Assembly (NCBI GenBank): GCA_963822445.1
Contig: CAWGHO010000002.1
Span: forward strand, 672,001-736,000
Direction: 5' to 3'
Length of the DNA stretch: 64,000 nucleotides
DNA from: an uncultured Acidobacteriota bacterium
GTDB lineage: Bacteria > Acidobacteriota > Thermoanaerobaculia > Gp7-AA8
Both the position numbers and the translations under genes were made by a program. The notes under the pieces were generated by a model. That model had not been told where the DNA came from and did no database searches. It saw only the letters and a program-made list of their open reading frames with translations. Of the stretch, positions 1,820 to 5,795 are shown piece by piece. Numbering within the stretch: the first letter of the stretch is position 1; each line of letters opens with the position of its first letter.

Positions 1820-3109
1820 TTGGCAGCCGCGGTGAAAAACGTAGCGGTCATCGGCGCGCAGTGGGGCGACGAAGGCAAGGGGAAGATCGTCGATCTTCTC
1901 TGCGAGGATTTCGACGTCGTGGCCCGTTATCAGGGCGGGCACAACGCCGGTCATACCGTCAAATTCGAGGACAAGCACTTCGCCCTCAGGCTGATGCCGT
2001 CCGGCATCGTCCATCCCGGCAAGCTCTGCCTTCTCGGCAACGGCATGGTCATCGATCCCGAGGCCCTGCTCGAGGAGATGACCAACCTCCGGGCGGCCGG
2101 AGTCACGATCGAGGAGAACCTCCTCATCAGCGACTCCGCCCACTGCATCCTCCCGTACCACAAGGCCCTCGACCTCGCTCGCGAGGAGTCCGCCGGCGTG
2201 GCCAAGATCGGCACGACCGGACGGGGAATCGGCCCGGCCTACGAATCGAAAGTCGGCCGCTACGGCATCCGCATCGCCGACCTCCTCGATCCCGAGGTGC
2301 TGCGGCAGAAGATCGAGTTCACCTGCGCCGAGCGCAACGCCGTTCTCGGCAGCGTCTACGGCAAGGAAACGTTCGACGCCAAGAAGCTCTACGACGATTA
2401 CCTGCGCTACGGCGAGATCCTCGAGTCGCGTATCACCAACGGCACGGTCTGGATCAACGAGCAGATCCGCGCGGGCAGGACGATCATGTTCGAAGGCGCG
2501 CAGGGAACGATGCTCGACATCGACCATGGCACCTACCCGTTCGTGACCTCCTCGAACACCGTCGTCGGCGGCGTCTGCACCGGCCTCGGCGTCGCCCCGA
2601 AGCACATCCACAAAGTCATCGGCGTGGCCAAGGCCTACACGACGCGGGTGGGCGGCGGCGCGTTCCCGACCGAGCTCGAGAACCAGCACGGCGAGCATCT
2701 CCGCAAGCGCGGCAACGAGTTCGGCACGGTCACAGGCCGTCCGCGGCGCACGGGCTGGCTTGATCTCGCCGTCCTGCGCACCGCCGCAACGCTCAACGGA
2801 CTCGATGAGATCGCGCTGACCAAGCTGGACGTGCTCGACGAGTTCGACGAGATCCCGATCTGCACCGCGTACAAGGTCCGCGGCAAGACCTGGAACACCT
2901 TCCCCGCGTTCGCTGTGGCGCACGACGACTACCAGCCGGAGTACCGCACGTTCAAAGGATGGAAGTCTTCGACTGCGGGAGTGACGTCGTTCGACGATCT
3001 GCCGCAGGAAGCGAAGGATTACGTTCGCTTCATCGAAGATGAGACGGAGACGCGGGCGGCAATCGTCTCGACGGGGCCGCGGCGCGAAGAAACGATTCTG
3101 CGAGGCTAA
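1820..3109 (+). CDS. purA: Adenylosuccinate synthetase
   Basis: GAQWGDEGKGK, GGHNAGHT, IGTTGRGIGPAY, EGAQG and EFGTVTGRPRR motifs. Confidence 0.98.
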   Translation: MAAAVKNVAVIGAQWGDEGKGKIVDLLCEDFDVVARYQGGHNAGHTVKFEDKHFALRLMPSGIVHPGKLCLLGNGMVIDPEALLEEMTNLRAAGVTIEENLLISDSAHCILPYHKALDLAREESAGVAKIGTTGRGIGPAYESKVGRYGIRIADLLDPEVLRQKIEFTCAERNAVLGSVYGKETFDAKKLYDDYLRYGEILESRITNGTVWINEQIRAGRTIMFEGAQGTMLDIDHGTYPFVTSSNTVVGGVCTGLGVAPKHIHKVIGVAKAYTTRVGGGAFPTELENQHGEHLRKRGNEFGTVTGRPRRTGWLDLAVLRTAATLNGLDEIALTKLDVLDEFDEIPICTAYKVRGKTWNTFPAFAVAHDDYQPEYRTFKGWKSSTAGVTSFDDLPQEAKDYVRFIEDETETRAAIVSTGPRREETILRG

Positions 3110-3240
3110 AGGGAACGACCGGGGCGCCTCCGGCGGGCGGCCACGGGCCGCGGCGTTAGTGTTGGCGTGAACGCGGTTCGCGCAACCGACGCGATTTTGC
3201 CAGAAGGCACAACCAACGCAGCGGCCCGTGGCCGCCCGCC
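3109..3240. repeat. REP-like palindrome whose right arm is split by IS110 (arm continues at 4782-4803)
   Basis: Left arm AAGGGAACGACCGGGGCGCCTCCGGCGGGCGGCCACGGGCCGCGGCGTT (3109-3157) is the near reverse complement of AACGCAGCGGCCCGTGGCCGCCCGCC (3215-3240) joined to GGAGGCCCCTCGTCGTTCCCTT (4782-4803). Confidence 0.85.
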
Positions 3241-3249
3241 TATAGCTTG

Positions 3250-3495
3250 TCCGGCCGTCTCTCCGCTTCTCCCTCAGCCCTCAGAGAAGTACCCGTTGGG
3301 TGGCAATCGGGAGAATCGGGTTCAGGCGGCGCGATACTGAGAAGAAGGGTTCGTCCCGCTACGAATTCCGCCCGTGTTCGGATCGACGAATCCCTCCGGA
3401 CTTTCGAGCGGGACGAAGTGCTTTGGCCCGAAACGCATTCTCAGATGCTGTCGGAGCACGACTCGACTATAGGCCTTGCGCGCGGCCAAAGCCAA
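3250..3495 (+). ncRNA. Putative IS110 bridge RNA (target-binding and donor-binding loops); ends approximate
   Basis: Stem 3350-3360/3407-3417 encloses CCGCCCG and CCTCCGG, which match the target. Stem 3420-3428/3484-3492 encloses CTCAGATG and CTATAGG, which match the circle junction. Confidence 0.8.
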
Positions 3496-3512
3496 CCCGA
3501 AGGGAGGGTGTG

Positions 3513-4757
3513 ATGAGCGAGTTCGAGTTTGGGGCGTTGGTGGGACTGGATTGGGGTGACACATCGCACGAGGTGGCTCTTTGGGACGAGCAGCAGCAGA
3601 CGTGCACGAACGAGCGCATCGAGCACACGCCTGCGGCTCTGCGCGCATGGATCGAAGCGCTGCAGGCGCGCTTCGGCGGGGCACCGATCGCCGTGGCCAT
3701 CGAGCAGTCCCGCGGCGCGGTCTTCGACGCGCTCAGCGGCTATCCGTTCGTCACGTTGTATCCGATCAACCCACGCAGTGCAGCCCGGTATCGTGAGGCG
3801 TTTCATCCGAGCCTTTCGAAAGACGATCCGACCGACGCGGCGTCCTTGCTCGACCTGCTCCGTAAGCACCGCAACGAGCTGCGCCCGTTCATCGCCGACG
3901 ACGCTTCTACGCGGCTGCTGCGGCTTCTGACCGAGGATCGGCGGGAGCTCGTCGATCAGAGGACGCAACACGTCCAACGCATGACCGATCGGCTCAAGAC
4001 GTACTACCCGCAGGCGCTCCGGTGGGCCGGCGCGTTGATTACGGCCCAGGCCTGTGACTTCCTCGAACGCTGGCCGACGCTCGAGGCCATCCAAAGGGCT
4101 CGGCCGTCCGCGATACGGAGGTTCTATGCGGGTCATCATCACGCGGCCGCGTGGATCGACCAGAGGCTCGCCGAGATCCGTTCAGAGGTCGCGTTCCACG
4201 ACGACCAGGTCACCACTGACGCTGCCGTGCTGCTGATCGGAAGCGAGGTTGCGCAGATCCGGGCCCTCAACACGAGCATCGCCACGTACGACCAGAAGAT
4301 CTCGGCGGCGTTCGCCGCCCACCAGGACGCGTCGATCTTCGCGAGCTTCCCTGGCGCCGGCCAACAGCTCGCGCCGCGGCTCGCCGCCGCCTTCGGGACC
4401 GATCGCAAGCGCTTCGGCAGCGCCGTCAACGTCGCCACCCGAAGCGGCATCGCCCCGGTTCTCCGCCGGAGCGGCAAAACGGCGGTCGTGCACATGCGCT
4501 GGGCCTGTCCGAAGTTCCTGCGTCAGACGTTCCATGAGTACGCCCGCGTGTCGATCGGTCAGTCCGAATGGGCTCGAGCCTTCTACAAGCAGCAACGCGC
4601 GCGCGGACACAGCCACCACGAGGCTATCCGCACGCTCGCTTACCGCTGGATCCGCGTCCTTTACGCCTGCTGGAACAATCGCACCGTCTACGACGAAGCT
4701 CTCTATCTGCGGCAGCTCGCCACCCGAGGCTCAACCCTCGCCACAGCTGCTCCCTGA
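3513..4757 (+). CDS. IS110 family transposase / bridge recombinase (RuvC-like DEDD domain plus Tnp domain)
   Basis: VGLDWG, VAIEQ and KDDPTDA (DEDD residues); FPGAG and SGIAPVLRRSGK (catalytic Ser region); GGAGG RBS before ATG 3513. Confidence 0.95.
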   Translation: MSEFEFGALVGLDWGDTSHEVALWDEQQQTCTNERIEHTPAALRAWIEALQARFGGAPIAVAIEQSRGAVFDALSGYPFVTLYPINPRSAARYREAFHPSLSKDDPTDAASLLDLLRKHRNELRPFIADDASTRLLRLLTEDRRELVDQRTQHVQRMTDRLKTYYPQALRWAGALITAQACDFLERWPTLEAIQRARPSAIRRFYAGHHHAAAWIDQRLAEIRSEVAFHDDQVTTDAAVLLIGSEVAQIRALNTSIATYDQKISAAFAAHQDASIFASFPGAGQQLAPRLAAAFGTDRKRFGSAVNVATRSGIAPVLRRSGKTAVVHMRWACPKFLRQTFHEYARVSIGQSEWARAFYKQQRARGHSHHEAIRTLAYRWIRVLYACWNNRTVYDEALYLRQLATRGSTLATAAP

Positions 4758-4758
4758 C

Positions 4759-4764
4759 TTGACA
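4759..4764 (+). promoter_or_regulatory. Outward-facing -35 box (TTGACA) in the IS110 right end
   Basis: TTGACA followed by exactly 17 nt to the end of the element; pairs with TATAGC (3241-3246) after circularisation. Confidence 0.7.
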
Positions 4765-4820
4765 GGAAGGCTCAGATGTCCGGAGGCCCCTCGTCGTTCC
4801 CTTATGCGTCCCGCGAGAAT

Positions 4821-5795
4821 CTACTGCCGCGCGCCGTCCGGCTCGGCAGCGATGCGCAGGTGCGCGACGGTCTCACGCAGCTCGCGCTCGAGCTGATCGT
4901 TGGTGATGCCCTCGCCGAGCTCGATGACGCGCTCGGAAGACCAGCGGCCGTCCTCGTAGATCACGAAGCGGAACGTGCTCTCGGGCGTGTAGAGGATCAC
5001 CCGGCCTTCGCTGATGAGCGCGCGTACCGGTGCGCCGGTGCTCGAAGCGATTTTGGCGTTAGGCAGGCGTTCGCCGCTGCGTCCGACCGGCTTCCAGATG
5101 CGTGCGTTGGGAACGGGCTTCGGCGTGATGCGCACGCGCGTCACAGCCGTCGACGCGTGCGCGCCGAACAGGACGTCGACGCCGTCGCCGCTGCGCGTCA
5201 TGGCCAGCGGGGGGTGCAGGACTTCGAGCATCGGCTCGCGGGACAGCGCCTGAGCGGAGTTCACCGCGGCGAGCGTGTTCAGATCGGAGATGTTCGTCGA
5301 AGCGAGCTGTCCCCGCTCGAACGCAACGAGCGCGTATTCGGCAACCGGGTCGCCGGTCATGCTCCACCAGACGGCGTGCACGAGAATCGAGTCCTCGCCT
5401 TCGACGGAACGGCTCATCACAGCCTGCAGGCCGACTCGTTTCGCGAGGCTCACCGGCGCCACTTCCAGCGGCTCGGACCAGTTCCCGCCCGGATCGAGGC
5501 GCGCCATCAGGATCTGCTCGCCGCTTTCCGAGGTCCTGGTCCAGAGCACGAACAGCGCGGAGGACTTCGCGTCCCACATCAGGGTTGCCTGCGATTCGAA
5601 GGCCTTGTCGCCGGTCGTCGGGACGAGCAGGCGCGTCTTGGTCCGTCCGACGCGCCGCACGATGTTGAGGCGGCCGGTCGCGTTGTCGGCCGTGTAGACG
5701 GCACCGTCCGTACCGAGGACGGGCGCCGTCTCCTCACCGGCCGCGGCGAGCGCGGTCAGGAGGACCAGGGCGAGGATTGCGATGTAGCGCGTCAT
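4821..5795 (-). CDS. Hypothetical secreted protein
   Basis: Signal-peptide-like N-terminus MTRYIAILALVLLTALAAAG; 5 bp downstream of the TPR gene. Confidence 0.7.
   Translation of the reverse strand: MTRYIAILALVLLTALAAAGEETAPVLGTDGAVYTADNATGRLNIVRRVGRTKTRLLVPTTGDKAFESQATLMWDAKSSALFVLWTRTSESGEQILMARLDPGGNWSEPLEVAPVSLAKRVGLQAVMSRSVEGEDSILVHAVWWSMTGDPVAEYALVAFERGQLASTNISDLNTLAAVNSAQALSREPMLEVLHPPLAMTRSGDGVDVLFGAHASTAVTRVRITPKPVPNARIWKPVGRSGERLPNAKIASSTGAPVRALISEGRVILYTPESTFRFVIYEDGRWSSERVIELGEGITNDQLERELRETVAHLRIAAEPDGARQ

Follow-up and report, generated by a model that had tools for sequence, protein, structure and literature searches.

An IS110-group insertion sequence with a predicted bridge RNA, a CC core and a REP-like hairpin target in an uncultured Acidobacteriota bacterium

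The locus described here prompts us to ask whether the non-coding left end of an IS110-type element encodes a bridge RNA whose target and donor guides can be decoded from the DNA, and whether its left guides stop short of the core dinucleotide by design. The window, by which we mean the whole stretch of 64,000 nucleotides that was analysed, contains this element at 3241-4779, 130 bp downstream of purA. In this work, 3241-4779 was found to be, almost certainly, a complete and recently active IS110-group insertion sequence with a bridge RNA in its left end, a CC core and a REP-like hairpin repeat as target. Insertion by conservative recombination at the CC core is part of the same explanation. 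The system class was already published in 2024, and the known mechanism is unchanged by the element, which is a well-decodable addition of modest novelty to the IS110 bridge-RNA class, with its CC core and REP-hairpin target.

Ends, genomic copies and recombinase

Both the element's ends and its CC core were fixed independently of the guides by 10 left and 12 right junctions in the same genome. This genome (6.0 Mb, three contigs) contains nine full-length copies with 96-100% identity, and additionally one internally inverted copy and two right-end fragments. All the full-length copies are inserted in one REP-like hairpin repeat, and four copies are ~100% identical and lie at separate loci with dissimilar outer flanks. 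Every left junction reads ...CCCG CC / TATAG (10/10) and every right junction reads ...GATGT / CC GGAGG (12/12), all of the latter being precise core junctions. The core is exactly 2 nt long, because the bases beyond CC are unlike at the left and right junctions. The element is multi-copy and near-identical, and thus was active recently. The uninterrupted 14-mer target is present elsewhere in the genome, including the minus strand of the window at 3127-3140. The non-coding left end (3241-3512) comprises about 272 nt and the right end past the stop codon (4758-4779) 22 nt, so the RNA was placed in the left end.

The recombinase has matches above the cut-off to PF01548 (DEDD_Tnp_IS110, N-terminal RuvC-like; 1.6e-28) and PF02371 (Transposase_20, C-terminal; 1.3e-11). 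Furthermore, its score of 143.2 bits against the NCBIfam model NF033542, "IS110 family RNA-guided transposase", lies narrowly over the cut-off of 140. The predicted catalytic residues are D13, E64, D105, D108 and S320-G321. Among 25 aligned homologs, D13, E64, D105, D108 and G321 are invariant, and S320 is conserved in 24, the exception being a frameshifted copy. By phmmer, the recombinase was aligned to ISCro4 with an E value of 1.8e-5 and to IS621 with an E value of 3e-4, the C-terminal domain alone being alignable; the alignment puts S320-G321 onto the catalytic Ser-Gly of IS621. Its relationship to the solved IS621 and ISCro4 proteins is thus distant, and therefore mechanistic detail is transferred by analogy. 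An original prediction, made from the letters of this locus, had proposed a non-coding left end of roughly 270 bp, a CC core and an intact recombinase. The first two agree with the measured left end and with the CC found at both kinds of junction, and the third is borne out by an intact open reading frame with both Pfam domains and the DEDD and Ser-Gly residues.

The predicted bridge RNA and its guides

Several lines of evidence support a predicted bridge RNA of IS110 type in the left end, whose target and donor guides appear to be readable from the sequence (Table 1). The minimum free energy fold of 3241-3513 consists of two stem-closed loops with an inner hairpin in each. The fold energy of the left end is weak (z = -1.69, reached by 11 of 200 shuffles) and is by itself poor evidence. 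A comparison of 10 aligned genomic copies revealed 13 variable sites in the 5' stem-loop (3254-3343) and none in 3344-3481, beyond which just 3482 and 3496 vary. The invariance of the loops between copies, while the 5' stem-loop varies, reflects selection on the loops. Among the relatives, one (L028) has a ~100-nt insertion within the 5' stem-loop. No relevant family was matched in an Rfam scan of 2900-5100 at E values up to 1, which returned two chance-level matches, to a plant miRNA model in the REP palindrome and to a Burkholderia sRNA inside the open reading frame. Among the public sequencing runs, no RNA run carried the element sequence; the sampled words were present at a fraction of 0.28 in the best DNA run and of at most 0.10 in the others. 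Contigs of four soil or rhizosphere runs gave fragmentary cover with no joints, and showed no circle junction and no empty site, which is uninformative on expression or excision.

Table 1. Coordinates of the features in and around the element (window positions; RNA features are predicted)
Feature	Position	Strand	Basis or relation
Inverted partner of the REP-like target repeat	3120-3151	-	
Unoccupied perfect 14-bp target site (LT7 + CC + RT5) in the partner repeat	3127-3140	-	Reverse complement equality
Left flank, GC-rich DNA hairpin of the REP-like repeat	3213-3238	+	Same flank at 10/10 left junctions
Left target (LT) CCGCCCG	3232-3238	+	Overlapped by the hairpin 3' arm
Left core dinucleotide CC	3239-3240	+	CC borders both ends of every copy
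First left-end bases TATAGC, right donor (RD) and -10 box of the predicted circle-junction promoter	3241-3246	+	
5' stem-loop of the predicted bridge RNA, weakly constrained	3246-3344	+	Fold; variable among copies
Target-binding loop (TBL)	3349-3418	+	Motifs, fold, covariation
TBL outer stem, 11 bp	3350-3360 / 3407-3417	+	
TBL helix CGAA / UUCG	3362-3365 / 3403-3406	+	
LTG CCGCCCG	3368-3374	+	Same as the 7 nt left of CC at 3239-3240
TBL core-facing bases	U3375, G3376	+	
TBL inner hairpin	3377-3390	+	
RTG CCTCCGG	3393-3399	+	Reverse complement of 4780-4786 (CC + GGAGG)
TBL handshake guide	A3400-C3401	+	Complementary to GT, last two right-end bases
Donor-binding loop (DBL)	3420-3492	+	Motifs, fold, covariation
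DBL outer stem, 9 bp	3420-3428 / 3484-3492	+	
DBL helix CGCA / UGCG	3434-3437 / 3477-3480	+	
LDG CTCAGATG	3440-3447	+	Same as right end 4771-4778
DBL bases facing LD position 7 and the first core base	C3448, U3449	+	C3448 opposite LD position 7 (mismatch); U3449 opposite the first core base
DBL inner hairpin	3450-3462	+	
RDG CTATAGG	3467-3473	+	Reverse complement of 3239-3245 (CC + TATAG)
DBL handshake guide	C3474-C3475	+	One of two positions pairs with target G
Ribosome-binding site GGGAGGG of the recombinase ORF	3503-3509	+	
IS110-family recombinase, 414 aa	3513-4757	+	PF01548, PF02371 and NF033542 profile matches
-35 box TTGACA of the predicted circle-junction promoter	4759-4764	+	In the 22-nt right end
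Left donor (LD) CTCAGATGT	4771-4779	+	First 8 nt same as LDG; last 2 nt (GT) complementary to the TBL handshake guide
Right core copy CC and right target (RT) GGAGG	4780-4786	+	Complementary to RTG; 12/12 right junctions

The guides would specify a target of 14 bp (7 + 2 + 5). Because A3400 and C3401 are complementary to the right-end GT, the reverse complement of 3393-3401 is the 9-nt right junction 4778-4786. Before insertion, the target has CG at these handshake positions, where the donor has GT, and matches extending into the last two right-end bases recur among the relatives. The chance occurrence of the guide motifs was estimated with 50,000 dinucleotide-preserving shuffles of 3246-3512. 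Of these shuffles, 3,477 contained the LTG 7-mer and 3,598 the RTG 7-mer, i.e., ~7% each, and therefore the matches of these GC-rich target 7-mers are individually unremarkable. The LDG 8-mer and the RDG 7-mer were present in 128 and 122 shuffles, respectively (~0.25%). Two of the four motifs occurred together in 228 of the 50,000 shuffles, and three or four in none. Chance does not account for the set of four guides with its correct order and strands.

Relatives of the element were collected from a scan of one genome per species, which gave 72 loci. The closest elements, in Thermoanaerobaculia assemblies, have 83-89% identity, those in Vicinamibacterales ~52%, and those in Planctomycetota, Blastocatellia, Gammaproteobacteria and others 38-49%. 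Both flanks, a recognisable left-end start and a right end were available for 29 of the 72 loci; the rest were dropped as extra copies from the same genome, elements cut by contig ends, or fragments. After removal of near-duplicates (L015, L025, L028, L044, L056 and L070), 23 elements remained. The upstream regions of the relatives align on a common scaffold. In the TBL, it consists of stem, ACGAAU, variable segment, hairpin, variable segment, CUUUCGA and stem, and in the DBL of stem, ACGCAU or ACGAAU, CUCAG.., hairpin, CUAUA.., UGCG or UUCG, and stem. The consensus structure of 28 sequences has 28 pairs, 22 of them with compensatory changes, and 92.8% of its cells are paired, compared with 34.5-45.8% when the partners were slid. 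Its covariation score was 0.631, compared with 0.12-0.14 for slid and 0.196 for shuffled partners.

Among the 23 elements, the mean longest exact match between the LTG side and the left flank was 6.70 nt for cognate and 3.37 nt for non-cognate combinations. For the reverse complement of the RTG side and the right junction, the corresponding values were 7.43 and 3.85 nt. Neither cognate mean was reached in any of 20,000 permutations, and four wrong-strand or wrong-side controls gave no signal (3.35-4.00 vs 3.15-3.49). Covariation in step with the host flanks can also be seen in single pairs. The elements L026 and L029, whose DNA is ~90% identical, have a single C/U difference in LTG and correspondingly different flanks, and the LTG differences between L016 and the window element are in step with two variants of the target repeat. 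The permutation test covered the target loop; covariation between LDG and the right end was read from examples, the donor ends varying little. A poor match to the left flank was found in L036, L039, L055, L043 and L070, and a poor right match in L048 and L064. These are mostly single insertions and may represent off-target or half-matched sites. In L033, no consistent decoding was obtained (core TT or AT). In a gammaproteobacterial group (L043, L044, L046, L056, L070 and others), the boundary seems to lie one base off and the core to be TT; since this core could not be fixed, the group was kept solely in the boundary-free longest-match test. The upstream flank itself is repeated in this group.

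The main reading of the original prediction, an IS110 bridge RNA with decodable guides beside an intact recombinase with a CC core, was supported by every test that was run, and the four guide matches obey the strand logic of IS621 exactly. All ten coordinates given in the original prediction are correct, among them the CC at both junctions. Both outer stems of the two predicted loops were recovered by the fold where they had been placed, and all four guide motifs were located at the proposed positions with the proposed matches to flanks and ends, including the identity between LDG and the right end. Covariation between guides and flanks in homologs, which had been named as a check, is present in the 23 elements, with 0 of 20,000 permutations reaching the cognate means.

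Alternatively, the left end could be merely a promoter or 5' UTR with a protein-binding region, and the matches could be sub-terminal repeats or chance similarities in GC-rich DNA, with no RNA guide. The frequency of the two target 7-mers in shuffles, the weak fold z-score and the public runs, among which no RNA run carries the element sequence, are in line with such an explanation. On the other hand, the covariation with the host flanks is both strand-specific and side-specific, and the host flanks are outside the element and therefore cannot be the element's own repeats. Moreover, the helices around the variable segments show compensatory changes, and the four guide matches together were seen in 0 of 50,000 shuffles. 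A left end with no guide RNA is thus disfavoured as extremely improbable.

Left guides and the CC core

In the two IS621 papers, the guides of IS621 are described as covering positions 1-9 (LTG), 1-8 (LDG) and 8-11 (RTG) (PMC11208160, PMC11208158). The LDG of IS621 leaves out the second core base, and this second core T is described there as almost invariant and read by the protein (PMC11208158). Pairing to both strands of the CT core is reported to be strongly preferred (PMC11208160), and non-cognate handshake pairing to drive strand exchange (Hiraizumi et al. 2024, PMC11208158). In the element studied here, RTG and RDG both include the CC core. LTG is followed by U3375 and G3376, which form no Watson-Crick pairs with CC, although the first core position could be bound by a G.U wobble. 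After LDG come C3448, U3449 and the inner hairpin; there is likewise no Watson-Crick pairing with the core, and LD position 7 is also unpaired. Unlike what is stated for IS621, the core is therefore not part of all four guide pairings here, because LTG has U and G and LDG has U at the core positions. Core pairing by all four guides is a description of IS621 and not a defining property of the family, since the LDG of IS621 itself omits the second core base and LTG fails to pair with both core bases in 8 of 16 relatives.

In the register set by the relatives, the core-facing positions exist (U3375/G3376 and U3449), and the loop is not shortened. The LTG bases at these positions are C,C in L016, which is the closest relative with a differing sequence there, C,A in L015, and U,G in L017, as in the window element. 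Core pairing was counted in the 16 relatives whose core is defined and whose LTG match is 5 nt or longer. LTG pairs with both core bases in eight of them, with the first alone in three, by wobble in two (including the window element) and with neither in three. The Vicinamibacterales relatives share the donor (right end CTCAGATGT, CC core and a left end that begins with TATAG), and their LDG is 10 nt long and reaches the first core base, while their LTG includes both core bases. According to the original prediction, the left guides appear to end before the core is reached, and this may be a variant architecture. The first part is true in terms of Watson-Crick pairing, and the second was not upheld, as relatives do pair with the core. 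The scattered pairing among relatives and the unchanged register therefore point to drift in a still-active lineage and not to a new architecture. As judged from these alignments, the mismatch between the left guides and the core is best described as lineage-specific drift.

It would be possible to consider the left guides as a distinct design that deliberately excludes the core, with CC read through the 3' guides, the protein, or both. In favour of it, the TBL has U,G and the DBL has U, and not C,C, opposite the core, LD position 7 is likewise unpaired, the relative L017 has UG too, and the element is nevertheless multi-copy and near-identical, i.e., recently active. In addition, the second core base is C, at the position where IS621 has a near-invariant, protein-read T (PMC11208158). 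Against such a design, the positions are in the same register as in the relatives, so the loop geometry is unchanged, and L016 and L015 carry CC and CA at the core-facing positions. Furthermore, the core pairing among the 16 relatives (8/3/2/3) is scattered and not a clade-wide design, and a 10-nt LDG extends to the core in relatives whose donor ends are identical. We consider a deliberate exclusion of the core improbable. If the bridge RNA is real, its copy or lineage may instead be crippled and poorly active, the copies having spread otherwise, e.g., by duplication of the repeat. The strong preference of IS621 for core pairing on both strands (PMC11208160) would speak for this, as would the lost pairing of the left guides with the core, the single LT mismatch to the common target, and the finding that one copy is internally inverted and two are fragments. 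However, four ~100% identical copies are present at separate loci with dissimilar outer flanks, the open reading frame is unbroken and retains every catalytic residue, and the right junctions (12 of 12) are precise core junctions, which makes a crippled lineage very improbable. Drift in an active lineage remains the preferred reading. A related conjecture, which we find unlikely, is that a clade including Thermoanaerobaculia and Vicinamibacterales elements, with 414-aa recombinases remote from IS621, accepts a CC core without Watson-Crick core pairing of the left guides, the core being checked solely via the 3' guides, the handshake and perhaps a hairpin of the target DNA. It would mean that IS621 is alone in its rule that a CT core is paired on both strands, and that the clade is a scaffold with other core and guide constraints. 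A phrase search of the open literature returned no report in which a CC core is named together with an IS110 bridge RNA, which is too narrow a result to make CC cores unreported, and the published orthologue tables (Durrant 2024, Perry 2025) may already contain the clade.

Circle junction, known systems and target repeat

In the order of the circle, the TTGACA of the right end is followed by 15 nt of right end, CC and TATAGC, which gives a perfect -35 box and a 17-nt spacer. In the integrated context, there is at most one of six matches at the -35 position, and no plus-strand promoter-like site was found in 3050-4900. In 20 of 29 homologous elements, at least five of six -35 bases match, with a spacing of 16-18 nt over the junction. 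The start TATAG was found in 26 of 34 homologs scanned, and TATGG in three more. These data suggest a predicted sigma-70 promoter formed solely on the excised circle.

By analogy with IS621, from which the bridge RNA itself, its ends, its binding by protein and the chemistry are carried over, we hypothesize the following course. Excision would join the right end of the element to its left end, and the joined ends would create the sigma-70 promoter (TTGACA, 17 nt, TATAGC). The junction promoter would then transcribe a bridge RNA of ~240 nt, consisting of the 5' stem-loop, the TBL and the DBL. The DBL would read the circle junction, the right end with CUCAGAUG and the core and left-end start with CUAUAGG. 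The 414-aa DEDD/Ser recombinase would, as a tetramer, cut after the core and exchange strands, and after top-strand exchange the TBL handshake guide AC would pair with the final two bases of the right end. Three features are absent from the original prediction, namely the handshake guides, the circle-junction promoter and the hairpin-forming REP target.

Compared with IS621, an IS110-group element of E. coli, the element has the same left-end arrangement of a bridge RNA with a 5' stem-loop followed by TBL and DBL, each with an inner hairpin. In both, the 5' guides equal the top-strand left halves and the 3' guides are complementary to the core and the right halves, the 14-bp target is divided into 7 + 2 + 5, and 2-nt handshake guides come after RTG and RDG. 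The DEDD and Ser-Gly catalytic residues and a REP-type target are also common to both, as is a promoter rebuilt across the circle junction, which here is a matter of sequence only. Unlike in IS621, the core is CC instead of CT, and the LTG core positions are U,G, which would allow a wobble at one of them and leaves a mismatch at the other. With a length of 8 nt, the LDG starts 2 nt further out, leaving LD position 7 and the core unpaired, and the RTG has 7 nt, whereas that of IS621 has 4. The recombinase of 414 aa has a longer middle region than the 326-aa protein of IS621, and the 5' stem-loop here is about 95 nt long. ISCro4 / IS622 (PDB 9t56; 10.1101/2025.05.14.653916) is the best PDB sequence match (E 1.8e-5) and has the same scheme of TBL, DBL and handshake guides (10.1101/2025.05.14.653916). 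Its core, however, is CT, and it is closely related to IS621 and distant from the recombinase studied here.

The RNA of IS1111-group elements is known as seekRNA. The recombinase family and the RNA-guided logic are common to this group and the present element (Durrant 2024, PMC11208160), but the RNA of the IS1111 group is located in the right end, with longer sub-terminal inverted repeats (PMC11208160). In the report on ISPpu10 of Pseudomonas putida, the element inserts in REP copies in which the 5' extension of the repeat forms a stem-loop that overlaps LT, and many of its targets form convergent pairs <200 bp apart (10.64898/2026.03.19.712850). The hairpin-embedded, convergently paired REP target described here is a parallel to that report, and the hairpin may have a role in recognition here. 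The core of ISPpu10 is CT and not CC (10.64898/2026.03.19.712850).

In an annotation, 3241-4779 should be recorded as a bridge-RNA-encoding element of the IS110 family, and the repeat around it as a REP-like target. The element offers a clean natural example of bridge-RNA logic outside Enterobacteria, in which target, donor and handshake guides and the junction promoter are all legible from sequence alone. Moreover, the CC core and the tolerated loss of pairing between left guides and core in an evidently active lineage provide data on how general the rules of IS621 are.

The genome contains 53 unoccupied target sites with at most one LT mismatch and 12 occupied ones; 10 left junctions are occupied. 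In 52 of 63 target sites (the six commonest folds), a hairpin of 6-8 bp with a 3-nt loop is present, and its 3' arm runs into LT. Furthermore, 54 of 63 target copies are arranged in opposite-strand pairs <250 bp apart. The LTG is one mismatch off the commoner form of the target, as 32 empty sites carry CGGCCCG and 8 carry CCGCCCG. By this count, ~50 target sites are still unoccupied in the host genome.

Possible conservation of the predicted bridge RNA region

The predicted bridge RNA at the left end of the IS110-family element was compared with contigs from two unrelated public soil and rhizosphere runs (X3 and X4), which supply few contigs at low depth. The part holding the RNA loops (3342-3588 of the window) diverges from these contigs by about 2% (4-5 differences in 203-247 nt), and the ORF part (3553-4543) by about 9% (24 differences in 257 nt and 39 in 445 nt). 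The comparison gives only a hint that the target-binding loop (TBL) and the donor-binding loop (DBL) are the most conserved part of the element. In one relative (L028:1230-1340), roughly 100 extra nt are inserted within the region of the predicted 5' stem-loop, while its TBL and DBL are uninterrupted. This insertion agrees with a 5' stem-loop that is dispensable or loosely constrained.

In the interval 3050-4900, the sole promoter-like site is antisense (TTGGCT and TATAGT, separated by 18 nt), and shuffled sequences gave a mean of 0.1 such sites. Its -10 hexamer overlaps the complement of RDG, the DBL guide at 3467-3473. An antisense RNA could be transcribed from this site across the DBL, or the site could simply result from the TATAG motif, which is nearly palindromic.

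Relatives with unusual junctions

In L036, a relative from a MAG contig (positions 1208-1501, together with its right end), the guide for the right target flank (RTG) matches the right flank over 7 nt, and the guide for the left flank (LTG) has no real match to the left flank (4 nt). Judged from these junction sequences, L036 looks like a half-matched insertion. Half-match recombination of this kind is discussed in a 2026 preprint. Relatives from Colwellia, Psychrosphaera and Algibacillus (L043, L044, L046, L056, L070, L071-L081) seem to have a TT core, with the boundary of the left end displaced by one base and 2 nt more at the right end. Furthermore, the stretch of about 100 nt that precedes the left end is also conserved among the copies of this group, and therefore the element may be nested within a different repeat, or the left end itself may extend further.

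Surroundings of the insertion site

The target lies in a family of REP-like, GC-rich hairpin repeats with about 63 target-carrying copies genome-wide, most of which are paired convergently, with the two partners within less than 250 bp of each other. The pair in the window may double as the purA terminator.

Features around the insertion site (window coordinates)
Feature	Position	Strand	Remark
purA	1820-3109		
REP-like repeat pair	3120-3240		just 3' of purA
Antisense promoter-like site	3495-3466	minus	
324-aa ORF	4821-5795	minus	directly downstream of insertion site; hydrophobic N-terminal stretch; no Pfam match

Rearranged copies in the host genome

The loci L012, L014 and L010 (G000:C3:469301-470841) make up a single element copy in which an internal segment of 161 bp is flipped in place. 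The inverted segment corresponds to element positions 415-575, within the recombinase gene (window equivalent 3655-3815). Both breakpoints show overlaps of 3 nt and lie at short inverted TCGAA/TTCGA motifs, with no CC-core site there. Moreover, two right-end fragments of the element (L011 and L013; element positions 847-1541 and 1161-1541) adjoin on opposite strands at G000:C1:940357-941431, and these abutting fragments are a pair of copies that has undergone rearrangement or recombination.
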